Origin: Heptranchias perlo
Lineage: Eukaryota
Assembly: GCF_035084215.1 (NCBI RefSeq)
Contig: NC_090360.1
Coordinates: forward strand, 16,492,001-16,556,000
Direction: 5' to 3'
Length of the DNA stretch: 64,000 bases
Part shown: positions 2,739 to 54,194 of the stretch, piece after piece
How the letters are laid out: each line of letters opens with the position of its first letter
How positions within the stretch are numbered: position 1 is the stretch's first letter
Translations under genes and position numbers: made by a program
The notes under the pieces: generated by a model
What the model saw: the letters and a program-made list of their open reading frames with translations, nothing else
Databases searched by the model: none
Told to the model about the DNA's origin: nothing

Positions 2739-5124
2739 AATATCAAAATATGTTTTATCTTAAAAATAACTAAAAACACGGTACAACGCAAAGGCACAGC
2801 TAACACACACCACTGTAATGCACCATGGAGTGGCACAAGTCCGACATAATAATTTCCCACAGGACATCCTCCTTATGCCTTGTTCACCTTCTCATCTGTG
2901 TGTCGGTGGGGAGGTGCCAAGCGTAGATCAGGATGGAGATTTCAGACAGTGGGAAGTCATTCCAGGTCATTTCAATACAACTCTTTGCAGCTGTTGCCAT
3001 GACAGCTGGGAATAGGTTGTCCATTGCTCCTTTTCAGATTGCACCTTTTATTATAATCCCCACAATTCCTATTCAAGGATCGATTACTTTGTTACTCATG
3101 AGCTACAGAAGGCAGAGATTAAAGTTTGTAAAATTGGCTTGAGTTTCACTCTTGGATCATGCTCCAGTGATTCTAACCCCAACAGTGTCAAGGCTCCCGA
3201 GGAGGTTGAACAGATGACAACTCAGTATCTTACTTCCCGGTGAATCTTTAATTTGGACAGTTTTTTTCAGAACACAACAATATCCCTGGGACATTGTGCT
3301 CTGGGAGCCAACTAAGGCAGTACTTTGTGGTTTTATTATTGATACATCTCCATTAAAAAAAATGAAGCACAGACGTCCTAGCTTTAACTGGAAGAGAATA
3401 AGATTGCTGGAATCCACCCGCAAGGAAAACTGAACACCTGAGATAACTCTTGATCTTCAGGAGCCCAAAAGGGAATTGAATATTCTCCTAACCTCTAATT
3501 TTGCAATACTAATAAAACTTACCAATGTGCATTTCCATGAGCACATGAATAAATTGGACAACTTAGTGGCATACGTTCTGTGGAAGCAGTTGGGTAGGTA
3601 AGTCATCCCATCACTGCACTCTAGCATTGACCAGGGTATCTATAGTCCTGAGGATATTAAGATGAAAAGGGATGAAATGGGGACCCCCAAATTGATTCCC
3701 ATCTCCTGTTTCATGAAATTACCAATACTGGTTTCACCCCTCCACTTTGGAGCGATACTTTGATCACACATACCAAAAAAGGGGAAAGGCCTCCTGTAAG
3801 GGTGCATCTTACAAGCTGATTTCTCTTCTGAACTGAGGCTCCAAAATCTTTACCACAATTTTCACAACTCATCTGGACAATTTGGTTTCCAATCAGACTC
3901 TGATCAGACAGGTTTAATCTGTGAGATGATAATCACCAGCAGCTTCTCATTATCCAGGGCAATTTTCCTCACCCACTTCCCCCTACCCCTCTTGCCTTGG
4001 TGCTGGACAGGAGTAGTGCCCCAAAGTGGAGTGGAAGACAAGCAGTAAGCCAGAGTCAGAGGAGTGGAGGGACAGAGACACACAGTTGGAGGAGTCACTC
4101 AGGTAGGGAAGAAATAGCACACTGACCATTCTTGATAGCGGAAGAGAACTGTCCGAGGAGATGAAGCAGCTAAATTGGATGTGATGGAAATGGACTGAGG
4201 ACAGATTGGTGCCATAGAATGAGAAGTATTTCATTACCGGTACTGACCTTTTCCATTATCTCCAAATTTGCCATTTCCTTTCCACACCAGAATTACAAGG
4301 CTAGCATTCTTTGGTTCTATTTGGCAAAGGAGCTACTCTCACAACTCCATTCTGTGTTGATTTCTGTGGGCACAGTGGCCTTCTCTCACTTATAAGAGTC
4401 ATGGACAGCAAATTTTAAATGCACAATTTTGAATAGTAACTAAGTGGCTATTTGGTTTGCAGTTCTTAGGCTGTCAGTAGCCAATGTTAGAGGAGTGAGT
4501 GAGATCCCTCAGGTATGGAGGGGAGAGTACATGGATGGGTTTGATATAAGTGATACCTGCAGGAGGAATGATTGGATATCCTCCATTGATTCTATCACAC
4601 ATCAGGCTAGGTACATTGTTGGCAGCCTGAGATTACAGATCAGGGTTGGAGTGGGCACAGAGGAGTCTCTTCCACTCACGTATTTCTTAAGCTTGTCCAT
4701 CAGTCCAATCTCATTAAGTTGGTACTCCGTGAGGTGAAATTCATCACATTCCTATATTGCACCCAATCCACAACATTGTATCTTGGATCTTCCTGCAGAA
4801 GTCCCATTGGACTTTCGAATGGGATATTTAATCAATCTCCTGGTGCTCACAGAATTCTATTGTCTCCCCAGCTCTCTAGTATTTATGGAACGTGGCTCAT
4901 TTGAAAAAGAATTGTGTATTCTATTTATGCATCTTAAGTAAATTTATTTGTCTGGGATTTACTGATTTATTATGAACCAGAAGAAAGCAGTTTATTCTAA
5001 TCCCCTTGTTGTCAGCTGACCTGGGCTGGTCTTGGCCATGCTGGGGTTCTTGAGGGCTCTGTATTCCTCTCTCATTACACTGTATGCACCCAGCATATCC
5101 CCCAACTGCACCTGCTCCTTTCAT

Positions 5125-5295
5125 TTATATTCATTCTCGGAATGAAGTCGCTGGCGAGGCCAGCATTTATTGCCCATCCCTAGTTGCCCTTGAGAAGGTG
5201 GTGGTGGGCCTTCTTCTTAACCACTGCAGTCCGTGTGGTGAAGGTGCTCCCACAATGCTGTTAGGTAGGGAGTCCCAGGACATTGATCCAGCGAC
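5125..5295 (-). mobile_element. LINE (CR1/L2 group) 3' end fragment
   Basis: Same family as the + strand copies at 13520-13875 and 34735-35225 (GGGATGGGCAATAAATG tail region). Confidence 0.65.
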
Positions 5296-5519
5296 AATAA
5301 ATGCTGGGGAGGAGATTTGGGAGGTACTGACAACAATTATAAGGGTGTTACTGGACACTGATGAGATACCAGTAGATTGGAAAACGGGGATAAAGCAGGC
5401 ACGGGCAACTGCAGACCCATCAGGTGTCACCCCAATTCCAAGTGGAATGCAGTTGATCAACAGGAATAAACAGGAATAAACTTGGAGTATCTGTACAATA
5501 ATAATCTAGTAAATAGATT

Positions 5520-6410
5520 CAGAATCATAGAAATCATAGAATAATACAGCACAGAAGGAAGCCATTTGGCCCATCGTGCCTGTGCCGGCTCTTTGGAAGA
5601 ACTATCCAATTAGTCCCACTCCCCTGCCCTTTCCCCATAGCCCTGCAAATTTTTCCCCTTCAAGTATTCTTTTGAAAGTGCGATTGAATCTGCTTCCACC
5701 ACCCTTTCAAGCAGTGCCTTCCAGATCATAACAACTCGCTGCGTAAAAAAATTCTTCTCATCTCGCCTCTGGCTCTTTTGCCAATTACCTTAAATCTGTG
5801 TCCTCTAGTTACTGACCTTTCTGCCACTGGAAACAATTTCTCCTTGTTCGCTCTATCAAAATCCTTAATGATTTTGAACACCTCTATTAAATCTCCCATT
5901 AACCTTCTCTGTTCTAAGGAGAACAAACCCAGCTTCTCTAGTTCTGCATGGAACTGAAGTCTCGCATCCCTGGTACCATTCTAGTAAATCTCCTCTGCAC
6001 CTCCTCTATGGCCTTGACATCCTTCCTAAAGTGTTGTGCCCAGAATTGGACACAATACTCCAGCTGGGGCCCTAACCAGTATTTTATAAAGGTTTCGCAT
6101 AACTTCCTTGCTTTTGTACTCTATGCCTCTATTAATAAAGCCCAGGATCCCATATGCTTTTTTAACAGCCTTCTCAACTTGTCTTGCCACCTTACAAAGA
6201 TTTGTGTACGTACACCCCCAGGTTTCTCTGTTCCTGCATCCCATTTAAAATTGTACCATTTAGTTTATATTGTCTCTCCTCATTCTTCCTGCCAAAATGC
6301 ATCACTTCACACTTCTCTGCTTTAAATTTCATCTGCCACGTGTCTGCCCGTTTCACCAGTCTGCCTTTGTCCTCCTGAAGTCTGTCACTATCCTCCTCAT
6401 TGTTTACTAC
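5520..6410 (-). mobile_element. CR1 LINE 3' fragment
   Basis: Frames [47 protein letters not shown]; ATAGAATC-type terminal microsatellite at ~5515-5542. Confidence 0.9.
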
Positions 6411-6727
6411 TGAAGTGGAGGATCCTGCTGGACCAGCCTCCTTGATTTCTTTGAGGAGGTAACATCCCAAGTTGACTGTGGAAGCCTCCATGGCATAGTG
6501 TATGTGAATTTCCGAAAGTCCCTTTTGAAAGGCTGTTATTAGTCAAACTCAAAGCTGTGGGATTCACGGTAAACCCTGGATATAGATAATAAACTGGTTG
6601 AAGGATAAAAAGCAATGAGTGTTCATTACAGGAATTACGTCGTGGGGTGGGGGTGGGGGGGGGGCGGGGGTATTGCAGTGCATAATGGACAGTAGTGATG
6701 TTTAAATGCATCTTATATCATATATAA

Positions 6728-7870
6728 GAGACTGTTAGCTAAGATAGAAGCCCATGGAATCGAGGGAAAAGTACAGACTTGGTTAGGAAGTTGGCTGAGC
6801 GAAAGGCGACAGAGAGTAGGGATAATGGGTAGGTACTCACATTGGCAGGATGTGACTAGTGGAGTCCCGTAGGGATCTGTCTTGGGGCCTCAATTATTTA
6901 CAATATTTATTAACGACTTAGATGGAGGCATAGAAAGTCTCATATCCAAGTTTGCCGATGACACAAAGATTGGTGGCATTGTAAGCAGTGTAGATGATAA
7001 CATAAAATTACAAAGTGATATTGATAGATTAGGTGAATGGGCAAAACTGTGGCAAATGGAATTCAATGTAGACAAATGTGAGGTCATCCACTTTGGATCA
7101 AAAGGATAGAACAGGGTACTTTCTAAATGGTAAAAAGTTAAAAACAGTGGATGTCCAAAGGGACTTAGGGGTTCAGGTACATAGATCATTGAAGTGTCAT
7201 GAACAGGTGCAGAAAATAATCAGGAAGGCTAATGGAATGTTGGCCTTTATATCTAGAGGACTGGAGTACAAGGGGGCAGAAGTTATGCTGCAGCTATACA
7301 AAACCCTGGTTAGACCGCACCTGGAGTACTGTGAGCAGTTCTGGGCACCGCACCTTCGGAAGGACATATTGGCCTTGGAGGGAGTGCAGCGTAGGTTTAC
7401 TGGAATGATACCCGGACTTCAAAGGTTAAGTTACGAGGAGAGATTACACAAATTGGGGTTGTATTCTCTAGAGTTTCGAAGGTTAAGGGGTAATCTGATC
7501 GAAGTTTATAAGATATTAAGGGGAACAGATAGGGTGGATAGAGAGAAACTATTTCCGCTGGTTGGGGATTTTAGGAGTAGGGGGCACAGTCTAAAAATTA
7601 GAGCCAGACCTTTCAGGAGCGAGAATAGAAAACATTTCTACACACAAAGGGTGGTAGAAGTTTGGAACTCTCTTCCGCAAACGGCAATTGATACTAGCTC
7701 AATTGCTAAATTTAAATCTGAGATAGATAGCTTTTTGGCAACCAAAGGTATTAAGGGATATGGGCCAAAGGCAGATATATGGAGTTAGATCACAGATCAG
7801 CCATGATCTTATCAAATGGCGGAGCAGGCATGAGGGGCTGAATGGCCTACTCCTGTTCCTATGTTCCTAT
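6728..7870 (+). mobile_element. CR1 LINE 3' fragment, relatively young
   Basis: GPQLFTIFINDLD..KFADDTK RT motif; one stop (~6870) and one frameshift (~7105); intact C-terminus and TGTTCCTA tail. Confidence 0.93.
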
Positions 7871-8254
7871 ATTATATTTTATATAATCGAAAGTACATGC
7901 TTTTGATATTTGCTTAATCGTATTATTTAAAGTTAGTTGCAAACTGCAAGAATAAATGCAAATGTGAGAACAAAAAACTGTGAGAACAAATGCTTGTGCT
8001 CTATGCTTCTTGTTTATAAACAGGATGACTTAAAGCCATATGAATAATACCTTTTGAACAAATAGACAAGGAACACTGATACACATAACTAAAAAGTCTA
8101 TCTCACAAACAACCTTGGAAGAAAATAACCAATTAACACTGAAACACTGCACATTTAATTAAAAAAACCTGGAGTGGGATTTGAACCCATAACCTTGAGG
8201 TGAGAGTGCTACCACTGAACCAAAGCTGACACTGCTAATTTGTGGGGGTAGGAC

Positions 8255-8460
8255 AAGGGGGGCATAGATTCAAACTATTAAAAGTTAATTTTAGGACTGA
8301 TATCAGGAGGTTCTTCTTCGTGCAAAGAGTGATCAATACTTGGAATGGAACTCCCAGTAGAGTAGTGGAGGTGAAAGCCCTGAATACATTTAAGAAACAA
8401 TCAGATACCACAATGCGGAAATTCCAGGATGAACTAATATGGGTTTTATGGCCTTCCGCA
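8255..8460 (+). mobile_element. Old CR1 3' fragment
   Basis: GHRFKL..RRFFFVQRVINTWN..VVE motif. Confidence 0.7.
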
Positions 8461-9394
8461 TCTGTCATTATCTTGTGATTTTGTGACCACCATTGAATCA
8501 TGCAGTTTCCCATAAGCTCTCACAATGCCTTCACTTTAAGGCTATTGTCTGTGATTATTTGAATAGAATTAAGTTGTGGAAAATGGCTCCTGGTGTATGA
8601 CACCCATGCCCCATAGAGGCAGATTGCAGGTACAACAAAGCTCATGCTGCAATCAGAATTATCAGGATTTATCTTTACTACCTGGAACAGTGTTTCACAT
8701 GTCTGGACAAATGAGCAGTATCATTACAGTACACCCCCACCCGCAGGGATTCCTGAATAATTGTTGTCTGCTGCATGCTGTATAATCTTGCTGTTAAATG
8801 CGGGCTCCGCATGCATCTCAAAGACCAGATTACAAAAAACTATGGCAGAGTGAGAAGGTGAAAATTCCAGTGAGGAATTAACAGTGGTTCCAGCATTGCA
8901 ACAAGAAAGATTGTTGCACCAAGCACTAATTCCTGACACTAAAGAGTGTCACAAATGCACAATTTCCTATCTGCCAAGAAACCAAACCTAAGTCACCTTG
9001 TCCTACACTCATATTCAGTTCTTCAAATATCACCCATTGCCATATTATGCTAAGCTGCTATTTTATTATCACTAATGACAAATAAATGTTCAGCACAATG
9101 TTCAAGTCAGGATACTTATTTCCTCTACTGTGTAGTGTGAGAATGTTAGCAGCTTTGATACTGCTCCTTGGTGCTTGTACTTCAGATGTGTGAACTTACC
9201 GCTCCTAAGTGATTCCCTAGCTGAAGGAGTGAATGTAGTGGGTGGCTGCAGGGTTTCATGGACAGTCTGCTGATATTCTGGTGGCCCGAAATCTCCCTTG
9301 ACTGTGCATTAGGAGGGTGGTGCAGGTGAATGACCCATAGCCGAGGCTGTGGTGGCTCCGTGCTTTAAGCTACTGGCTCCCATGCCTGTGCACC

Positions 9395-10382
9395 GTTTGC
9401 AACCTTGGCATCCTATTTGACCCTGAGATGAGCTTCCGACCCCATATCCGCTCCATCACCAAGACCACCTACTTCCGCCTCCGTAACATCGCCCGTCTCC
9501 GCCCCTGCCTTAGCTTATCTGCTACGGAAACCCTCATCCATGCCTTTGTTAATTCTAGACTTGACTATTCCAATGCTCTCCTGGCTGGCCTCCCATCTTC
9601 CACCCTCCATAAACTTGAGCTCATCCAAAACTCTGCTGCCCATATCCTAACTCGCACCAAGTCCTGTTCACCCATCACCCCTGTGCTCGCCCACCTACGG
9701 TGGCTCCCGGTCCAGGAACGCCTCGATTTTAAAATTCTCATCCAGCTGCCTAGGCCCCAAACTCAGCTGCCTAAGCCCTAAGCTCTGGAATTCCCTCCCC
9801 AAACCTCTCCGCCTCTCTACCTCTCTCTCCTCCTTTAAGACATTCCTTAAAACCTACCTCTTTGACCAAGCTTATGGTCATCTGTCCTAATATCGCTTAA
9901 TGTGGCTCGATGTGAAATTTTGATTGATAATGCTCCTTTGAAGTGCCTTGGGACGTTTTACTACGTCAAAGGTGCTATATAAATGTAAGTTGTTGTTGTT
10001 TTCAAATCCCTTCATGGCCTTGGCCCTCCCTAAATCTGTAACTTCCTCCAGCCCTATAACTCTCCAAGATCTCTGCACTCCTCCAATTCTTGCCTCTTGC
10101 GCATCCCCGATTTTAATCGCTCCACCATTGGCGACTGTGCCTTCATCTACCTAGGCCCTAAGTTTTGGCATTCCCTCCCTAAACCTCTCCGCCTCTCTAC
10201 CTCTCTCTCCTCCTTTAAGACGCTCATTAAAACCTACCTCTTTGACCAAGCTTTTGGTCACCTGTCCTAATGTCTCCTTATGTGGTTCGCTGACAAATTT
10301 TGTTTGATAATCGCTCCTGTGAAGCGCCTTGGGACATTTTACTACATTAAAGACGCTATATAAATGCAAGTTGTTGTTGTTG
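9395..10382 (+). mobile_element. L2 LINE 3' end with a second L2 3' end nested inside
   Basis: LIHAFVNSRLDYSNALLAGLP..IQNSAA..ITPVLAHLRWLPV motif; two AAATG(C/T)AAGTTGTTGTT tails at ~9995 and ~10380. Confidence 0.88.
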
Positions 10383-18775: not shown

Positions 18776-18967
18776 GCATCTGTGCAATGATATTGGTAGA
18801 AGCAAGACTGCAGTAGGACAGAGCACAAGGCGCAAGCTAGGCAGAACCAATTTATTTCAGAAGTCGCATCTGTCTTCACTGTTTTTTTCGAGGTACACTG
18901 CGAGAATTCAACTAATATATTACAAGAGTCTGTTTCGAATCACAGGGCGCCCAAAAGACCAGAAGCA

Positions 18968-19310
18968 ATGACTTGTGCTACCTGGTTCGCAATAGTGTCT
19001 TCGCTAAGTTTCCTGTTACAGGTTGCGACGTGCAAACCGCTGAACGGTTGGGGACTGCCAACCGATGAAGAGGGAGTCGATAATTACGAAAATGAAGACG
19101 TTCCAGATGAAGACAGTGGGTTCGATTTCAACGCGTTTTTGGAAAGCATGAAGGACGAGTTCTTACGGAGTTTCAACTTGTCAGATATCCCTTTGCAAGA
19201 TCCAGCGCAAGTGGATCCTCCACAGTTCATGATAGATCTGTACAACAAGTTTGCTACTGATAGGTCATCCATGCCGTCTTCAAACATCGTAAGAAGCTTC
19301 AGAAACGAAG
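18968..19310 (+). CDS. GDF2: GDF2/BMP9 exon 1 (signal peptide and N-terminal prodomain)
   Basis: ATG at 18968 followed by a hydrophobic signal peptide. Contains BMP9/10 prodomain motifs (MKDEFLRSFNLS; PPQFMIDLYNKFATDRSSMPSSNIVRSF). Phase-1 donor GAAG|gtaaat at 19310/19311. GDF2 rather than BMP10 is assigned from its position next to RBP3 and ZNF488. Confidence 0.88.
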
Positions 19311-19841
19311 GTAAATTACATTTCACAGCCTACAGAAGCATCTGCGAATTTTCTACCGATAAAAAAAAGTGTAACAATTGCCCTGGCCTGTAATAATACG
19401 CTTAGTGGATACTATTTCTGAAATGTTCAGCCAACTGCTTCCCAATTATAACCGCAGCACAAACGAAATATTTGTTGGACTAAGCACTGACCTTGAGATA
19501 AGTCACCCAGTATGAAACTATGTGAAATAAACTAGAGGATGGAATTTTTTTTAAAAACGATGCAGTTGGCTTCGTCAAAGACGAATAGTCTTGCTTGTAT
19601 TTTTGACAGATTTTACACAAATTCGACCGAACAAATACAAGAGCATTCAACGTTGGCAAAGCCAATTGCATTATTTCTTGGAATATCGCAATCTACTAGT
19701 TTATATAGAAATATACACGATTGGATATATGACTTATATCATGCACTGTTAATTTTGAGAGTTTCAACGTAACTTTTAGATAGGGGGTGTAGTTCTAAGT
19801 CTTGGATACTCTGGTTTTTCAAATACTTGCTATTTTCCCAG

Positions 19842-20788
19842 ATAGTACATCCATTCTCCCATTGGGAGAAAACGAAGTGAGGAGGCACATGCTCATCTTT
19901 AACATATCCATCCCCCGTCATGAAGAGATCACCATGGCCGAATTGAGACTGTACACCGTCGTTGAGAGAGACAGGAGAATGTACGAAGGTGTGAACAGGA
20001 TAGTCACGGTTTATGACGCAGACGAGCCGGACGAGAGCTTGCAAGAGGTATCGATGCAACCCCAGCGGTCATTGCTGGTCTCCAAACAGATCGATGGCAA
20101 GAACAGCGGCTGGGAAGCCTTTGATGTGACCGATGCCATCAAACGTTGGGTCAGATCCGGCAAAACGACTCATAAGCTTGAAATTCACATCGAAAACGCC
20201 GAAGGTCCACAAGAGGTGGTGGACATGGAGATCGACCCGAGCTCTGAAAATAAAAACGTGCCGTTGCTGGTGGTGTTTTCCGATGATCGAAGTCATGGGA
20301 AGAGGGAATCCGGAGACGAAATGAAAGAGATGATCGTGCATGAGCAGGAGATCATGCTGGAGGAGCTGGCGGAAAGGTTCACTTCACATGGGCACGATGA
20401 AGGTCTGATCAAGGCACAGTCCATGCTCTCTTATGACTCCTCATCGAGAACCCGCAGAAACGCCAAAGGGAATTACTGCAAACGGTCTCCTCTCCACGTG
20501 GACTTCATGGAGATCGGTTGGAACTCCTGGATAATCGCCCCTAAGAGTTACGAGGCATACGAGTGCAGAGGGGTGTGCTATTTCCCTTTGACTGACCACG
20601 TCACCCCCACCAAACACGCTATCATCCAGACACTGGTGAACCGCTCGAATCCCAAGAAAGCGTCCAAGGCCTGTTGTGTGCCAACCAAGCTTAATCCCAT
20701 CTCGGTACTGTACAAGGACGATGCCGGAGTAATGACCTACATGTACAAATACGAGGGCATGGTAGTGGCGGAGTGTGGGTGTAGATAG
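19842..20788 (+). CDS. GDF2: GDF2/BMP9 exon 2 (prodomain, RTRR furin site, 7-Cys TGF-beta domain)
   Basis: Acceptor ttttcccag|AT restores the frame (G+AT = Asp). RTRR at 20447-20458, then mature domain NAKGNYC...VTPTKHAIIQTLV...KACCVPTKL...ECGCR*. Spliced CDS is 1290 nt (429 aa). Confidence 0.9.
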
Positions 20789-24744: not shown

Positions 24745-25382
24745 ATAGAATTATATAGAATTATATATAATGTACAGCACAGAAACAGGCCATACAGCCC
24801 AGCTGGTCTATGCCAGTGTTTATGCTACACAGAGGCCTCCTCCCACCCCTCTCCATCTAACCCTATCAACACAACATTCTATTCCTTTCTCCCTCATGTG
24901 TCTATCTAGCTTCCCCTTAAATGCATCTATGCTATTTGCCTCAGCTACTCTTTGTGGTGGCGAGTTCCATATTCTAACCATATTCTGGATAAAGAAATTT
25001 CTCCTGAATTCCCTATTAGATTTATTAGTGACTATCTTATATTTATGGCCCTTAGTTTTGGTCTCCCCTACAAGTGGAAACATCTTCTCTACATCTACCC
25101 TATCAAACCCTTTCATAATCTTAAAGGCCTCGATCAGGTCACCCCTCAGCCTTCTATTTTCTAGAAAAAAGAGCCCCTGCCTGTTCAATCTTTCCTAATA
25201 GGTGTAACTGCTTAGTTCTGGTACCATCCTTGTAAATCTTTTTTGCACTTTCTCCAGTGCCTCTATATTCTGTTTATAATATGGAGACCAGAACTGTACA
25301 CAGTACTCTGTGTGGTCTAATCAAGGTTCTATACAAGTTTAACATAACTTACCTGCTTTTCAATTATATCCCTCTAGAAATG
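24745..25382 (-). mobile_element. CR1 LINE 3' fragment
   Basis: LENRRLRGDLIEAFKIMKGFDRVD..GHKYKI..RRNFF motif. Confidence 0.9.
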
Positions 25383-27897: not shown

Positions 27898-28126
27898 GGG
27901 GTGATGTTAAACCCTCAGAACGGGAGGGTTGGGGGTGGGTGGGAATTGAAAATAATTGTTTTTTTCGATCGCAACTGCAAAATTTTCGGACTTTGCATTT
28001 CTCAGTGGGAAGCCTGTACTTTTACGTGCCCAAGCTAAACCCGGAAATAAAGCCGGGTTGCGGTCGCGACCCAAAAAACAACTATTTTCAACTCCCACCC
28101 GTTCTTGGGGGTTAGAATCACCCCCC
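27898..28126. mobile_element. Short MITE
   Basis: TIR GGGGTGATGTTAAACCCTCAGAACGGGAGGGTTG versus right-end reverse complement GGGGTGATTCTAACCCCCAAGAACGGGTGGGAGTTG; internal AACCCGG/CCGGGTT. Confidence 0.7.
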
Positions 28127-29712
28127 TGGTGTCTGTGCAACTATACCCCAGCACATCAGTGCTTTTAGGGGAGAGGAAATGGGGGAAGGGAACAGGAGGC
28201 ATGGAAACAAAAAGTTAAAATTCCAAAAAAATCAACAAAAAAAATGCACAAAGATAAAGGCAGTTGCCAGTTTGACATACCCATTTGATCTGCACACCAT
28301 GGGAATGGAATTTTGATAAATATTCTCATCTTCCTGAAGTTGCATGCACTGTATGATGAATTCCCATTCCACTGATACTGGTCAGGAAACTTCTGGAGGT
28401 AGTGTTCATGAACGGTTTAAATGCAATGCTGGAGATACATTGAATAAAGTCATGATTAAGGTCCAGGAGCCACCATCTAGGCCTTTTCATTGACGTATGC
28501 CTTAATTAATTGCCAGATGAAAGAAGGCATATGATTGTGCACTATTGGAATGTAAAACAATGGAATGCCATTGAGATTGTCCATATTCCAGTATCTTGCT
28601 GGTCAAGCCTTCTTCACAAAGAAGAAAGACTTGCACTTATATAGTGCTTTTCACGAACATAAGAATAAGTGCAAAAGACAACATTCATTTCTGCAGCATT
28701 TCACTCACAGTGACATGATTTTTGGCTGCCTCTTTGCAGCTTTGCCCATCTAGGGTAGATTTTCTTCTGAATACTGCCTGATCTTTTTGCAGTATTCTGG
28801 CAGGCAGGGATGTCAAACGGATTGGGGACTTGTTATGCTTTATCCCTCCAAATTTCTATGTCTGTCCCATTTTCTAGCATCACTTCCACTGGACATTGAT
28901 AGCGCATGCCCAAATATGGGCAGGCGTATTTCAGTGAGGTGTTAATGACGCAGTGATGCCTTATGTCGAATTTATTTTCATTACCGTCTTATTTGAAGCA
29001 TATCTAGTGTTGCTAGGCACTACGTTAAAGGCAGAAGCAAATTTAATGCGTCACAGCAGGTACTATGAAGGTCTTGTAAAATCCTTACACCTGAACTGTT
29101 TTCCTTAATTTTTAAAATTTTTTTTCCCTCAGTGTTAACAACAATTTACCACCTGCTGTGGCAGTCCCATTTTCCCCCTCCCCCATTCCAAAGAGGCCAG
29201 AATGGGGTTTCCGTTGACAATACCCCTGCATCTGTGTTTACTGATGAAAGAGAAGGAGGAACAGGCTGGTTAGGCACCATGGCAGCCATATGGCTCCCAT
29301 CCACTGGAACCCCACTCCAAGTTGTTCCTACCTCTGACTGACGTAGGAACAGTGTTTGTGCAGGCTGTGCTTCATAAGGAAAGCCATCAATGGGTTATGC
29401 CACATGCTGCAACCTGACTTACAACCTGCTCCCATCATAGATTCTGTGCTGCCAGTGTCTGTGAAAGTCACCACCATCCCAAACAGGGTAATTCCATGAT
29501 GTCTCTGGGGGCGTCAATCAGCTGTACACAAATGTATCAAGCAAGTTACAGATGCATTGTTTGCTTGAGCAAGCCAGTTCATCACATTGCCCAGAGACTG
29601 ACCAATGCCAGCTTAACAGGGCACTGCAATTTTGCTGACTGGCAGGATTTCCCGAAGTACAATGAGTCATATAGTCACATGTGCTCCCTTCATCAATCCC
29701 ATCATGTACATC

Positions 29713-29889
29713 TGTAAGGAATCTTACCGCATATGCGGTAACCTTCATGGAATCCCACACTCACCTGACGAAGGAGAAAACCTCCGAAAGCTTGTGATTT
29801 TCAAATAAAACTGTTGGACTATAACCTGGTGTTGTAAGATTCCTTACATTTGTCCACCCCAGTCCATCACCGGCATCTCCACATCATGG
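29713..29889 (+). mobile_element. Penelope-like element terminal (pLTR) fragment with 14-bp TSD
   Basis: Flanked by CCATCATGTACATC at 29699-29712 and 29890-29903. 5' TGTAAGGAATCTTAC is the inverse of 29834-29848. Contains the hammerhead motif and AATAAA at 29804. Confidence 0.75.
29761..29797 (+). ncRNA. Minimal type I hammerhead ribozyme motif (Penelope-associated)
   Basis: Stem I TCAC(29761-64)/GTGA(29794-97); core CTGACGA(29765-71) plus an extra A; stem II GGAG/CTCC; GAAA(29786-89); palindromic AAGCTT in place of stem III; predicted UH cleavage after 29793. Confidence 0.75.
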
Positions 29890-30409
29890 CCATCATGTAC
29901 ATCAACAGGAAAGGATTCTACCCACTCAATGCCAAGGTGATTTGTGACCAGCAGCATAATGCAAGTAAATGCTTGCTTTCTCAGCAGCTGCCATGACGCC
30001 TTCATTTTAAGGCAGTCCGCTGTGCCAGAATTTTTTCAATTAGAAAGCCAAGTGTTTGGATGGATTCTGAGAGATCAAAGCCATTGCATGGTTACACCCA
30101 TGTGCTTTCAGAGGATACCAGCTGAGAACTGCTATAACAAGGTCCAATCCGCCACCAAAGTCATTCTAGAGCTCACTAATTGAATTTTGAAGGCACACTT
30201 CAGGGGCCTAGATTGGTGTAGGATGCTCTGCAGTATAATTCTGCTAGTCTCAAGGACAGTGGTGGTGTGTTGTATGTTGCACAACTTTGTCAAACAAAGA
30301 AGCCTCCTCACTGAGGCTCCAGAGGAGGAAGGATCCAAAGGTCATCAGGGGATGAGGCCGACAACAAGGAGCAGCATGGAGGGATGCAGAGCACAATTCA
30401 TTGTCAGCC

Positions 30410-30790
30410 AACGAAAGAAATAAAGAACAGACGTCCAAAAATGCTTTACAGCCAATGAAGCACTATTGAAGTGTAGCCACTGTGGTAAGGTAGGCAAATA
30501 TGACAGCCAATTTGTGTTTTTGGTGGTGTGGTTGAGGGATAAATGCTGCCCAGAATGCCAAGAGAACTCCCCTGCTCCTCTTCGTCTAGTCACGTGGGGT
30601 CTTTTACATCCACCTGAGCAGGCATACGGAGTCTTGGTTTAATATCTCATCTGAAGGATGGCACCTCTGACTGTACAGCACTTCTCAGTACTGCTCTGAA
30701 GTGCCAGCCTAAATTATATGTTCCAATCTCTGGACTGGAGCTTAAACCCACAACCTTTTAACTCAGAGATTAGAGCCATGGCTGACATTT
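30410..30790 (-). mobile_element. tRNA-derived SINE (family of 22335-22785)
   Basis: Colinear similarity to the 22.3-kb copy. Confidence 0.75.
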
Positions 30791-32739
30791 ATTACAATCT
30801 GATACAGGATTACTACACTACATGACCTATCCTGCCTACATGTTCCCACTTGCTAGCAGGAAAATATCATCAGCAGACACATCTCTGTGTGAATCAATGC
30901 CAATGGCTCCCAATCATGCCACCTCATCAAAGTAATTTCCAAACCTTACCCAAAACAAACAATGTCTGAATGCACAGCAACTTTAATGCAACCATATTTT
31001 TACTTTCAACCCATTCACTGTGTGGGCCTTTCCACCCATGCTATCTTTTAGTGCAAGTTCAGGATGTGCGACCTCTTCAAGTTAGTCTTATGCTTCATCT
31101 AGGTGCTTCCCGATGGGCAGGAGAGCGTGGGTAGCTGGCTGCTATGTTTCTTTAGGAGCATCCTGGGAGTCATGGCATTTAAGTCTGAGATGGACCTTCT
31201 GCAGGCTGCATCTCTTGCACTGCTGCAATGGTGCGAATGGGGGAACATGCTGTCATTCTAGTTGCTGTACCCAACCAAGGTGTCTTCAATCCCAAGTAAG
31301 CACTGCTTGGATCCCCATGAAAGCAGCTGCCGCACATCATGCTCCGGTCATACTTGGTCATTCAACCAATGAACACTTCCATTCAAAAAGCAAACCCCAC
31401 AGTGAAGAAACTCCTGGAGAAGAAAAACACTGTCTTATAGTTCACGCAACATCAGAAAAGTGTGGTGTTTTCTTTGCTTAATTATATTTTCTTTTATGTT
31501 TTATGATTAAAAGATCAGTCCCTTTCAATTGTGTGCTTTTTTATTCAGTTATTTCCTTTTATTAAAAGAAATACTTAATAATTTGTTTAGTCCAACTTAT
31601 ATTCAGATAAATTAGACACAAGGCAATTACAACCTCGTAACAGATTGCTACTTACAACTTATTCCATTTGTATATTAAAAATGTTGTGTATGCATTAACC
31701 TCCTGACCAACTTCCGTTTGTCACAATTTTTGGTCACCCTTTTATGTCAACATTTAACATTGAAACTGCTTATATAAACATCTAGAATGGAAATTTTATA
31801 TGTAAACAGTTGACAGTAATGATGTAGTTACAGATTTCAGTCACTAGGTGATGCTGTGGAATGAGTTTCCGATGTCTCCCAACTCCATCACCATCTTGTA
31901 TGTAAAAAAAACTTAATCAAAATGACCTTGGCAATGCCACAATTTACTGGTATATATACACCGCATGAGAATATAAGTAAGCATCATGGGGAGATATTTT
32001 GCATTGTTGTTTAACAGTAATTATAGAAGAGATTGGCATTAAACCAATGTTCTTCTTTTCTGTGCTAATCAATGAACAGGAGAGTGAAATTACTAAGAAG
32101 TATTTTATCGAAAAGTCTCTGATGTTGCTCATTTATGAGCATTCAGAAAAATATGCAGAAACTTCTTGCTGGGGAAATTTAAACAACCAGGTTGGAATTA
32201 ACTTATCAACTTGGCCGAGTTAATTTAACAATGAAGCAGCTAAACTATGTGATACAATATTAAAATGAGGGAGACACAGCCTCCCTCATTTCCTGCCGTT
32301 TGCTCTGATTGGACGGTAGAGCCACTAGTTAGACCCTGGTGTCCGATGTATCAAGGTCAGTGGAAGGATGATAAAGATGGTGCCAGCAGCAAGGCCCTGT
32401 GCTATGGCTGTCCAAGTATTGTCAGGCACAAGACCCAGAAGGCAAGATTTCTTTGTTACTTCTTACCAGCATCTCTGAGGCCGCCTGTACCCCCATGAGA
32501 TTTCATCCCAATTCTGAGAGGAGTCGCCGCAGATTAATGGATCTTTCACACTACAACTTTAGCGTTGGTGTGTAGTGGTTACAGTTTCACACTAATGCTA
32601 AAATTTGTGCAGTGACCCAAGCTGACTCTGAAGGGTTGAGACTAGCTTCTCCAAGGAGACTCACTCTAATTTGCTCTGGATTCTGGTACATTTACACTAT
32701 AACTGCAGCATCGGTGCAAAGCTGCAGTTACAGCATGAA

Positions 32740-40260: not shown

Positions 40261-40343
40261 GTATTAAGACTTCCTTCGGGTCTCTATCGCTGATAGACTG
40301 GGGGTGGTTTTTTTTTGCTGGAAAACTACCTCGTTAAAGAAAC

Positions 40344-43343
40344 ATGGCCGGAAGCGCCTACTTTTGGCTGACAGTTTTATTGTTCAGCAATGTGCCCGGT
40401 GGTGAGATGTTCCAGTCGACGCTAATGTTGGACATGGCCAAAATCCTACTGGACATGTACTGCTTCCCAGAAAACTTGGTCGGGATGAAAGAAGCCATCG
40501 GACAAGCCAATCAGAGCGGAGAAATACTGCACGTGACCGACCCCCAAACTTTCGCCACTGTGTTGTCCGCGGGTGTCCAGGGGGCTTTGAACGACCCTCG
40601 CCTCTGGGTCTCATACGAACCTGGAGCATCGTTCTCTGAGCCGGTGGATCTCCCTACCCCGAGCCCCGAGATGATTGTAGCCCTGGTCCAGCACTCAATC
40701 CAATTCGAAATTTTAGAGAACAACGTGGGTTACTTAAGAATTGACCACGTTATTGAAGAGGACATCATCAAAATGGTTGGCCCGACTCTTGTAGACACAG
40801 TTTGGAAATACATCCTGAACACCGACGCTTTGGTTCTGGATCTCCGATACAGCGGTAGTGGGCAGGTCTCTGGAATTCCTTTCGTGATCTCTTACTTTTG
40901 CGACGCGGACCCTGAAATTCACATCGACTCTATTTATGACCGTCCGTCCAATTCCACCAAGGATATATGGACCCTGCCCAGTCTTTTGGGTGAAAGATAC
41001 AGCAGGGATAAAGATCTGTTGGTGCTGATCAGTAAGAACACCCAGGGAGTTGCTGAGGATGTGGCGTACATTCTCAAGCACTTAAACCGGGGCCTTTTGG
41101 TGGGCGAGCGGACAGCGGGTGGGTCACTCAATATCCAGAAGTTCCGCATTGGGTCATCCGACTTCTTCATCACGGTTCCCCTGTCAAGATCCATCAGCCC
41201 CATCACCGGGCAGAGTTGGGAAGTAAACGGCGTTTTCCCATGTGTTCTGGTGAATGCAGAAAATGCACTTGAGAAAGCAACGTCTATTCTAGCTGTTAGG
41301 AAGTCGATGCCCAATGTGATCCAGACAGTTATTGAGATGTTGGACAATTATTACTCCTTCGTGGATCGTGTACCCGCCCTGATCCGCCAGGTTTCTAAAG
41401 TTGCCTACTCGGCTGTGATTTCAGAGCAAGACCTGGCAGCAAAACTTAACTCTGAGCTCCAGGCCACCTGTGAAGATCCACGACTAATGATTAAAATAAG
41501 GTCAGAACCCCCAGTCACCATAAAGCATAACCCTACCGTGGACTTACCAGATAACGCTACTTTCCTCCAGCATCTGGTCGACAGCGTGTTTCAAGTGAAG
41601 ATCCTGCCAGGCAATATAGGATACCTCAGATTCGATGAGTTTCCGGATGATTCTGTGCTGGTAAAACTAACCCCGTACATACTTAAGGGAGTGTGGGAAC
41701 CGATCGAAGACACTGATCATTTAATAATAGATCTTAGGTATAACATAGGCGGCTCCTCTGCCGCCGTGCCTGTGTTGCTCTCCCACTTCCAAGACCAAAC
41801 GCCACCCGTTCGCTTTTTCACTGTATATAATAGGCTGACCAACGCCACGATAGAATTCTCCACACTTCCTAATTTGAAAGGAAACTCTTATGGGTCAAAG
41901 AAAGGCGTCTATGTGCTCACCAGTCATCACACTGCCACCTCAGCTGAAGAACTGGCCTACCTAATGCAGTCATTGAGCAGAGCCACGGTGATTGGGGAGA
42001 TCACATCTGGCAGCCTACTTCATTCCGGGTCATTTCAAATAGAAAATACCAATTTAGTTATTACAATCCCATTCATAAATTTCTTAGATAATAATGGAGA
42101 GTATTGGTTAGGCGGCGGTGTGGTACCTGATGCGATAGTATTGGCCGAAGAGGCGCTGGATAAGACGAAGGAAATTATAATGTTCCATGCTGAAGTGTTT
42201 GGGCTGGTGGAGGACACGGGGAAACTTCTAAACGTCCACTATGCCATCCCAGAGGTGGCTGCCAAGATCAGCTCGGTGCTCAATTCAAAGCGGTCGGAAG
42301 GTTTGTATCGTCCCGTTGTAGATTATGAGTCATTGGCTTCTCAGTTGACCTCAGACCTTAAGGAGACCTCTGGTGACCACCGGCTTCACGTTTTCTACAG
42401 CGACACCGAACCTAATGTCCCGGATGAGCACGCTGGCAAAATACCTTCGCCTGAAGAGCTCAGCTACATCATTAATGCCCTTTTCAAAATCGAAGTGCTA
42501 CCAAACAATATAGGGTACCTGCGATTTGATATGATGGCCAATGCAGAAATCATCAAGGTTATTGGCCCACAATTATTGGACCAAGTGTGGAACAAACTGG
42601 TCAATACAGACACTTTGATTATTGACATGAGATACAACACTGGTGGTTACTCAACTGCCGTTCCAATTTTATGCTCTTACTTCTTTGACCCGGAACCTGC
42701 CCGTCATCTTTACACAGTGTTTGACCGCTCTTCCTTGACTAGTTCAGAAATATGGACAATGCCTAAAGTACTGGGCCAAAGATACGCCTCTCATAAGGAT
42801 ATCTACATCTTAACCAGTCATATTACAGGTTCTGCTGCAGAGGCATTCACAAGAGCAATGAAAGACCTGAATAGGGCAACAGTCATAGGGGAACCAACTA
42901 TAGGAGGCGCCTTGTCTGTAGGCACATACAGGATAGAAAATAGCAATCTCTATGTATCTATTCCAAATCAAGTTGTCCTGAGCGCCGTCACGGGAAGAGT
43001 ATGGAGCCTCTCTGGAGCTGAACCGCACGTTACGGTCCAAGGTAACGAGGCCATGAACGTTGCACTTTGCATCATCGAGCTTCGCTCCAAAATACCATGG
43101 ATTGTCCGGACAGCCGGAAAACTGGTAGCTGATAACTATGCCTTTGCTGAAACCGGTGCGGGAGTGGCTGAGAAGATGGCTGAAATCGTCAGTAAGGGGA
43201 AGTACAGCATAATTAATTCTGAGGTTGAGCTGGCTCAGAAATTATCAGAGGACCTTCAGAAACTGTCCGGCGATAAACATCTCAAGGTAGCGCATATCCC
43301 TGAAAACTCAAAGGACCATATTCCCGGTGTAGTCCCGATGCCG
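40344..43343 (+). CDS. RBP3: RBP3/IRBP exon 1 (signal peptide, modules 1-3, start of module 4)
   Basis: N-terminal DMAKILLDMYCFPENL; three repeated GYLR(I/F)D...(L/I)D(L/M)RY modules; ends PGVVPMP|gtaggt (phase 0), matching the canonical IRBP exon 1 boundary. Confidence 0.97.
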
Positions 43344-43454
43344 GTAGGTTTCTTATCCGAAATAAAACATGGCTCAATTAAGAAAGTTGACCAAGCAATC
43401 TACTCAGTAACGGTGTATATTAATTTCAGTCTTATTTATATGTCCTTTTCCTAG

Positions 43455-52928: not shown

Positions 52929-54115
52929 TCAATTGTGAGATGTCATGTGTCGCGATAGATGGTGGCGCTCTCTAAAGAATTCATTACATATTGGACATGT
53001 CAATTTCTCCTCCCTTCGTCTCTTACTCAGGTAGTCAGTTGCATATTCTTTTTTGTGATGAGACCTCATGTGAAACACCAGGTCAGAAGTCATTCGAAAG
53101 GACGCGTTGCATTTGGCGCACCAGTTCTGAGCTGACACCCCAAAAGACGTATAGGACGGTGGGAGCAGAGTCAGTGAGGATGTGGATTGTAGCTGAACTC
53201 CAACCGGCTTTGGCCACATGTCGGTGCTATATAAAAATGGGCCGTTGGTTGTGACACTTGTGTGTAATATATGAGAATTGCCAAGATCAGTGCTGATGTA
53301 TTTGGACCCCAACAGATTAGTGTGACCCAGGAGATGACTTGAAGTGATAGAATCAGGTATATCCCTAGCGCATTCAGTAGAAGCATGGAGCGCATGGGCT
53401 AGACGCATGGAAGGCCCTTCTCCTGTTCGTCTGTTCGGTTGACAGAACGCACTTTTCTGTTCTTCTCTGGCACCGGACGGCATTACAGAAGAGAAGGCGC
53501 TGCCAGTAGAACTGAGAACCACGTCTGTTCTTAGTCCGACCTTCCGGGTAAAGTCAGGGGTACTTTCTTTGGCATTCCCCTCTGTTTTGTCAGCTTTGCC
53601 CTTTTCTCGCGCTCGTCGAACCTCAGTAAATGCACTTGTTTTATGCTGCGATGAATCTTTCTTCAATAAATACTTATCAGAATTAAGTTTCCAAACTGAA
53701 ACTGCAAGTGCCGGACAAAGACTTGGGTCTTCTTTAGAAATTCCGCCCTGGTCGCAGACTAAATGATTTGTTTTTTCTAATAAAACCGTTTTCCTGATTT
53801 TGTTTTCCTCTGGGCCTTCTTGTTTCCTCTTGTTGGCATTCTTTTCTGTCGAAGATCGCCCCTCGTCCTGCACGGCAGACTTTTTCTTGGAGTGCTCCAG
53901 ATCATGGGCTATCCTGTGAAAGTTGGTAACTCTGTCCTTATCTTTGACTTCTGTGCTCTTGTATGTGTCTTTAAACAGGCCGTTGTGACCAAAACCAAGA
54001 GCTTGAAAATCTCTCCATGCGAGATAGTCTTTCCTCTTGCCACACAAGAATCGAACGTGGGCCAAATATGGATTTTCATACTTCAATTCCTGATCACAGT
54101 CCACGCACCTAAAGG
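52929..54115 (-). CDS. ZNF488: ZNF488/PRDM8-like coding exon 3 (one C2HC finger and two C-terminal C2H2 fingers)
   Basis: Acceptor tttgtgttag|CC. Encodes CVDC..HVRFLC, then QNWCAKCNASFRMTSDLVFHMRSHH...CPICNEFFRERHHLSRHMTSHN*. Tail-to-tail with RBP3, as ZNF488 is in human. Spliced CDS is 1635 nt (544 aa). Confidence 0.88.
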
Positions 54116-54194
54116 CTAACACAAACAATAAAATGTCACCAACAACTTACTTCTAAATGCATTCCATTGTGTTCATATTTAATAAACAAAACAG

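Follow-up and report, generated by a model that had tools for sequence, protein, structure and literature searches.

The window, i.e. the whole 64-kb stretch of DNA analysed here, contains a TGF-beta-family gene, the first exon of an IRBP gene and, on the opposite strand, a C2H2 zinc-finger ORF. By human gene order, we take the TGF-beta-family gene to be GDF2 and the zinc-finger ORF to be ZNF488. Between the TGF-beta-family gene and the IRBP gene lies a Harbinger transposase fossil that is interrupted by an intergenic insert of 177 bp with a hammerhead motif (Table 1). Other repeats in the window were a further remnant of a Harbinger transposase (40% identical to a PF13359 protein, E 4e-9), a pair of 28-nt inverted repeats (93% complementary, 108 nt apart) that is possibly a small MITE, and three open stretches that are presumably LINE ORF2 C-terminal remnants, judging by their appearance.

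Table 1. Features of the insert, its host transposon and the surrounding window (positions in the 64-kb window).
Feature	Position	Strand	Basis or remark
Open stretch, presumed LINE ORF2 C-terminal remnant	7072-7788	+	
Second Harbinger transposase remnant	8544-8795	+	
Open stretch, presumed LINE ORF2 C-terminal remnant	9341-9781	+	
TGF-beta-family gene	18800-20788	+	
Open stretch, presumed LINE ORF2 C-terminal remnant	24820-25194	-	
Inverted repeats, possibly a small MITE	27937-28100		
Harbinger transposase fossil, 5' part, stops and frameshifts	29257-29712	+	tblastn, paralogues
Left target-site duplication, 14 bp, CCATCATGTACATC	29699-29712	+	found singly in host paralogues
Insert, 177 bp	29713-29889		sequence inspection
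Inverted tail-less arm, 15 nt	29713-29727	-	exact reverse complement of 29834-29848
Perfect palindrome at arm junction, 18 bp	29724-29741	.	sequence comparison with pLTR
TTAC microhomology, 4 nt	29724-29727		
Self-complementary ATAT	29731-29734		palindrome centre
Direct 5'-truncated pLTR arm of Penelope-like element	29731-29889	+	near-identity to full-length copy L031
Minimal type I hammerhead motif	29761-29797	+	pattern match and folding
Stem I	29761-29764/29794-29797		
Core CTGACGA	29765-29771		
Extra A	29772		
Stem II	29773-29776/29782-29785		G 29773 pairs with C 29785 (G10.1-C11.1)
Loop II	29777-29781		
GAAA	29786-29789		
Palindromic AAGCTT replacing stem III	29788-29793		predicted cut after 29793
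AATAAA, possible polyadenylation signal of pLTR	29804-29809	+	sequence inspection
PLE tail, 41 nt	29849-29889	+	reaches ORF start codon, ATG 29886-29888
Right target-site duplication, 14 bp, same letters	29890-29903	+	sequence inspection
Harbinger transposase fossil, 3' part	29890-30390	+	tblastn, paralogues; insert splits DDE-domain motif region
IRBP/RBP3 first exon	40338-43454	+	gene from 40338 onward
C2H2 zinc-finger ORF	52929-54146	-	

PIF/Harbinger transposons have terminal inverted repeats, a 3-bp target-site duplication (TSD) and a second ORF of Myb/SANT type. A preliminary description, made from the sequence of the window alone, had placed the insert in a decayed Harbinger element, and the tblastn search agreed with it on both flanks, across stops and frameshifts. 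In particular, a PF13359 (DDE_Tnp_4) protein of the same genome matched 29326-29754 with 30% identity (E 4e-14) and 29947-30390 with 37% identity (E 1.7e-24). A direct Pfam scan of the two short stop-free host pieces gave no transposase match. Eight out of 11 paralogous host loci, with approximately 60-71% DNA identity to the window, continue across the site with no insert and a single copy of the repeat motif; the repeat is therefore a true TSD in an old Harbinger fossil. A same-sample contig from the sequencing runs covered 29866-30400 without differences and probably comes from the assembly's own sample; with 24 bases on the insert side it falls short of formally bridging the junction. The joints listed for the contigs of eight sequencing runs included no empty-site joint.

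The insert is flanked by two identical 14-bp direct repeats, as first described; a 14-mer repeat of this kind would arise by chance within 300 bp with a probability of about 1e-6. Because the right TSD begins with a C that also matches the element, the insert end is ambiguous by 1 nt. The coordinates of the earlier layout held, but its account had overlooked that the first 18-29 bases form an inverted arm, which is reduced to 15+7 nt. This arm starts at the equivalent of position 3461 of L031, a full-length copy of the parent Penelope-like element (PLE), and the tail-less ends of the family fall at L031 positions 3456-3470. At the TTAC microhomology the inverted arm skips about 92 nt of pLTR, its own hammerhead included. 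The ATAT at the palindrome centre is also the remnant of a TATA-like box (TATATAT), which in this copy is broken by the arm junction. At the other end, the ATG reached by the tail corresponds to the one at position 3499 with which the L031 ORF starts. The letters CATCATG are common to the TSD and the tail end; by inspection, most sampled TSDs were unlike the tail, and the likeness looks incidental.

We then compared the direct arm with the genome. Positions 29731-29890 were identical to the 5' pLTR of L031 (3344-3503) at 159 out of 160 positions, and the single change falls in loop II. This identity and the identical TSDs, set against the 60-71% of the host to its paralogues, are in line with the recent insertion that had been proposed. 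L031 consists of a pLTR, a 905-codon frame and another pLTR, with hammerheads at 3378 and 6427. Its frame matched RVT_1 (E 5.9e-8) and GIY-YIG, the latter at E 1.8e-4 and 22.2 bits, i.e. 0.4 bit below the cut-off of 22.6; among the Atlas neighbours, GIY-YIG was found in 31% of members, and a PDB search with the ORF returned 0 matches. The Penelope-type origin given in the preliminary description was thus supported, with near-identical pLTRs around an RT and GIY-YIG frame. L031 was the sole full-length copy seen of the window's subfamily, and it has YIDN instead of YIDD.

Linkage of genomic copies to such an ORF was also found in loci of a sister subfamily. Among 12 further loci, taken out of 150 scored matches mostly for their long frames, nine had a frame of more than 500 codons, all with YIDD, and eight had an open 907-codon frame with YIDD and YIGET, flanked by two hammerheads about 3.04 kb apart. 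All nine long YIDD frames belonged to the sister subfamily (arm identity of 123-124/130 in the eight full-length copies and 86/92 in the ninth), and no open-frame copy of the window's exact subfamily was seen among L031 and these 12 loci. The linker CHGNLCKTC (CX4CxxC) was present in L031 and in all long frames. A CX2-5CxxC linker ahead of the GIY-YIG domain marks the Neptune and Nematis clades in the account of PMC8557442, and by its translated frame the parent element has a linker of this type. The Penelope/Poseidon clade, which is without the linker, was ruled out for the same reason. Features of EN+ PLEs were found throughout: an ORF with RT and GIY-YIG in the parent, pLTRs around the ORF, tandem arrangement, an inverted 5' pLTR, a one-sided tail and a TSD. 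One array (L250/L251, G000:C6:66254500-66268500) comprised one inverted full-length unit and tandem 3,036-bp units with open 907-codon frames; one of its ends had the tail, the other lacked it, and its apparent TSD has 13 bp. Another copy of the host Harbinger family (L038, 874-1162) has the pLTR of this PLE at another position, as an inverted pair, so Penelope-in-Harbinger nesting is not unique. Special targeting of Harbinger was considered and set aside, L038 being just one more nested case noted.

The hammerhead motif occurred once in the 64-kb window and in none of 100 shuffles. It comprises core positions C3-A9, G12-A15.1, U16.1 and H17, helices I and II, a palindromic 15.2-16.2, an extra base between 9 and 10.1 and the pair G10.1-C11.1. 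Its description as an intact minimal hammerhead stood for all core bases, stems I and II, the palindromic AAGCTT and the AATAAA, with "intact" applying to the sequence only. In the folded insert, stems I and II had predicted pair probabilities of 0.75-0.94, and the insert as a whole was not predicted to be unusually stable (z -1.5). Stem III is unable to close in the monomer because G29790 and C29791 are adjacent. The covariance-model scan suggested in the preliminary description gave a negative outcome, with no hammerhead match to the Rfam models at E<=5 in 28700-30900. We also examined 109 arms chosen independently of the motif, keeping those with no more than 4 mismatches outside loop II, a filter that biases towards conservation. 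Four out of five loop II positions differed by subfamily, the core was nearly invariant, and the recurrent stem changes were G-U-compatible (A-U to G-U in 13 arms and C-G to U-G in 11), though they represent few inherited events. No two-sided stem covariation was seen in the 109 arms, and a relaxed pattern demanding another second pair in stem II had 6 genome matches vs 2 for the control, with no family among them; the pairing is thus backed by one-sided G-U-compatible changes in a few subfamilies. The variable loop II, the near-fixed core and the G-U-compatible stem changes together make selection on the motif in the source elements likely.

To describe the insertion layout of the family, loci L111-L239 were chosen by downstream pLTR patterns alone from approximately the first 27 Mb of contig 1, and they gave 51 outward-facing paired-end rows, two of them from one locus. 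One tailed and one tail-less end were combined in 49 of the 51 rows, the other two having a short tail and no tail, respectively. A shared repeat of 8-15 bp (mode 12) was present at the junctions of 45 rows, compared with 13 out of 500 mismatched controls, and 38 rows spanned 119-249 bp. The same layout was found in a second set, biased towards tailed ends, and likewise in a full-length inverted-plus-tandem array. The layout of the window insert, with an inverted tail-less arm, a tailed arm and a TSD, is the norm of this family. In contigs of two sequencing runs, other copies showed a tandem duplication of a 35-37 nt segment (matching window 29814-29850) adjoining the tail-less start site.

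We next located the 5' ends of 100 distinct arms that had an anchor 30-54 nt downstream of the predicted cut, from approximately the first 14 Mb of contig 1. Seven ended 25-6 nt downstream of the cut and three within -5 to +4, while upstream of it 7 ended at 5-19 nt, 39 at 20-49 nt, 5 at 50-99 nt and 39 at 100 nt or more; because ends were assigned from similarity to seven reference copies, a few arms that are rearranged or of a foreign subfamily count as short. In an overlapping set of 82 arms, 2 ended at 0-5 nt and 35 at 20-40 nt. The hammerhead cut as the 5' terminus of templates was rejected, with ends there in 3/100 and 2/82 arms. The pile-up of arm ends lies instead at the 5' edge of the hammerhead, where a TCACTC motif follows the TATA-like box at a distance of about 30 nt. 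The distribution agrees with copying of uncut RNA off both target strands. We infer that templates were mostly uncut and that the cDNA would run off at a transcription start at TCACTC, with RT stalling and palindrome collapse as alternative explanations of the pile-up. Penelope of D. virilis is described with a TATA-less internal promoter (PMC2377424), so this promoter reading is not general. The window's own direct arm extends to 63 nt upstream of the cut and is not part of the pile-up. Six other copies (L007, L013, L022, L023, L030 and L094) end like it at the TATATAT box (L031 3341-3344), a possible second hot spot of ends, in a sample (L002-L030) that is biased towards the box.

We interpret the insert as a single, recent, heavily 5'-truncated pLTR end of a protein-coding PLE in a dead Harbinger transposase, with the hammerhead as a standard passenger that is likely inactive; we give this reading a probability of about 0.9. 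The GIY-YIG nuclease of the element would have made a staggered cut, with nicks about 14 nt apart, and from each free 3' end reverse transcription would have begun on element RNA, at the tail-less start site for one and, about 41 nt farther in the 3' direction, at the tailed site for the other. The resulting short cDNAs would then have been joined where the TATA-like box has its self-complementary ATAT. The left arm may have lost its 92 nt or so across the TTAC microhomology, either by a template jump or by later collapse of the perfect palindrome, and gap filling would have produced the TSD. Since the direct arm continues past the predicted cut site, the hammerhead in the template RNA had likely not been cut. 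For another PLE, in vitro work is reported in which both strands are cut and extended and the tail lies between two RT start sites (PMC11167929); by analogy, the two together may have given the product found in the window.

A different origin had been raised for the insert in the preliminary description, namely that the 177-bp unit represents a non-autonomous, ribozyme-bearing (retrozyme-like) family. Such a family would be copied as a unit, possibly via circular RNA. The proposed copy-number count returned tens of thousands of related ends, with 71,477 exact matches of the hammerhead pattern genome-wide (0 for the reversed control) and 917, 9,823 and 22,158 of three pLTR stretches. In favour of a separate family, short hammerhead-bearing insertions are the commonest form in the family, with the 38 out of 51 rows given above, and non-LTR retrozymes are reported from PLE pLTRs, with a chondrichthyan among the carriers (bioRxiv 10.64898/2026.07.22.740005). 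Against this, the 27-base junction of the inverted and direct arms had one match in 3.25 Gb, and since the 5' junction is unique, the 177-bp unit was not amplified. The best 39 non-self matches of 2,498 candidates (40 scored) begin at query base 24-35, not 15, and palindrome centres vary between copies. The 64-kb window contained no tandem unit and no other piece of the same element, and the arm is pLTR sequence of ORF-bearing elements that runs on into the ORF start. This origin is already largely refuted, and we consider it extremely improbable. The lone hammerhead could also be imagined as active, forming trans-dimers with family RNA, cutting a host transcript and having a local regulatory role. 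Its core bases are all intact, stems I and II are predicted to fold in context, and tens of thousands of partner motifs exist in the genome. Nonetheless, it lies in a transposon fossil between two genes with its TATA-like box broken, and a dimer would have 4 intermolecular pairs only. In addition, the double-hammerhead dimer was modelled at -16.3 kcal/mol, less favourable than two monomers (-18.8) or the best co-fold (-20.6), so the energy model does not favour it, and published minimal hammerheads are described as inactive as monomers and weak as dimers (PMC4209133). We regard such activity as very improbable. The window holds no second hammerhead as a dimer partner, and together with the broken box this makes the lone copy likely inert, as far as its sequence tells. 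In full-length and tandem elements, by analogy, two hammerheads would pair via AAGCUU and cut as a dimer, probably weakly or with the help of the element's protein. The hammerhead of an Anolis PLE is reported to cut only with the protein of the element and to be dispensable for insertion (PMC11167929).

The mirror arm raises a separate question within the same origin. In place of priming by both strands, the arm might have arisen when a single cDNA folded back or primed itself, from an antisense template, or when a longer palindrome collapsed after insertion. Collapse of a palindrome would leave a microhomology deletion in one arm, as seen here. The perfect 18-bp palindrome at the junction is in keeping with such routes, and self-priming on an antisense template, not two-strand priming, was argued for junction palindromes in PMC3846280. 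A simple fold-back, however, does not account for an inverted arm that starts, in 49/51 rows, at a second, fixed point about 40 nt inward of the tailed end, and in the insertions L130 and L198 the two arms differ in subfamily-type loop II, which suggests two RNA templates or recombination. We therefore hold these routes to be less likely than priming by both strands. As for the family, the dominant insertion may be strong-stop-like, in that cDNAs primed by both target strands on uncut RNA would be joined at its 5' end; we put this forward tentatively, at somewhat less than even odds. There would be two fixed priming sites about 40 nt apart, and the cDNAs would end at an initiator that immediately precedes the hammerhead and follows the TATA-like box by about 30 nt, joining there as a short palindrome. 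In the window copy, as a variant of this, synthesis would have continued as far as the TATA box, and most of one arm would have been lost.

If the strong-stop-like reading is true, the hammerhead cut would have no role in setting where templates end, and the hammerheads present by the tens of thousands in the genome would be by-products of the motif's place right behind the transcription start. The locus itself matters little, since a 64-kb window is expected to hold about 1.4 motifs of this kind. How PLEs integrate and what their hammerheads do are treated as open questions in PMC8557442 and PMC11167929, and this young, very abundant family offers a countable record in the asymmetry of one tail and no tail, the TSD mode of 12 bp and the arm ends that shun the predicted cut. 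An in vitro test is feasible, given the open RT frames in copies of the sister subfamily.

This type of ribozyme and this layout of insertion have both been described before, and the locus is an ordinary further copy. Among the papers retrieved, titles and the opening parts of abstracts gave no report on hammerhead-bearing Penelope elements in sharks, nor did titles point to one on twin priming in the mechanism of PLEs, and the supplements of the retrozyme preprint may list chondrichthyan families. The motif resembles the minimal PLE hammerheads of metazoans described in PMC4209133, which are of type I with a 4-bp helix I, an unpaired base between 9 and 10.1, G10.1-C11.1 and a palindromic 15.2-16.2 without loop 3, and which are placed in pLTRs, mostly as dispersed single motifs from truncated PLEs. 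It differs from that description in a helix II of only 4 bp and in the cleavage triplet C-U-U, and its 71,477 exact matches compare with 4,000-9,000 for coelacanth and Xenopus, though the counting methods differ.

The insertion layout, which PMC8557442 calls typical of PLEs, is closest to that of EN+ elements such as Pen2a_Av (PMC3846280; scheme in the Figure 2 legend of PMC8557442). These combine an inverted tail-less 5' pLTR, a direct pLTR with a 30-40 bp tail into the ORF, a short TSD, a palindrome at the inverted junction, and TATA-like and TCACT Inr-like motifs in the pLTR. The window insert is a miniature of this arrangement, with the ORF gone, 15+7 nt of inverted arm and a 41-nt tail, and its TSD has 14 bp (family mode 12) vs 8-10 bp in the rotifer examples of PMC3846280.

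PAc, the Poseidon element of Anolis (PMC11167929), shares an ORF with RT and GIY-YIG, a tail between two RT start sites, a hammerhead near the ORF start and an inserted template that is uncut RNA. In our family the hammerhead and the two end sites are upstream of or at the ATG, whereas in PAc they are reported 26 and 111-118 nt inside the ORF, and the parent ORF here has the CX4CxxC linker that Penelope/Poseidon elements are described as lacking. Finally, non-LTR retrozymes (bioRxiv 10.64898/2026.07.22.740005; PMC7229834) are likewise short, non-coding and pLTR-related with a type I hammerhead, but they are described in the preprint as tandem units with a hammerhead in each, whereas the window insert consists of one unit and has an inverted arm and a junction found once in the genome.
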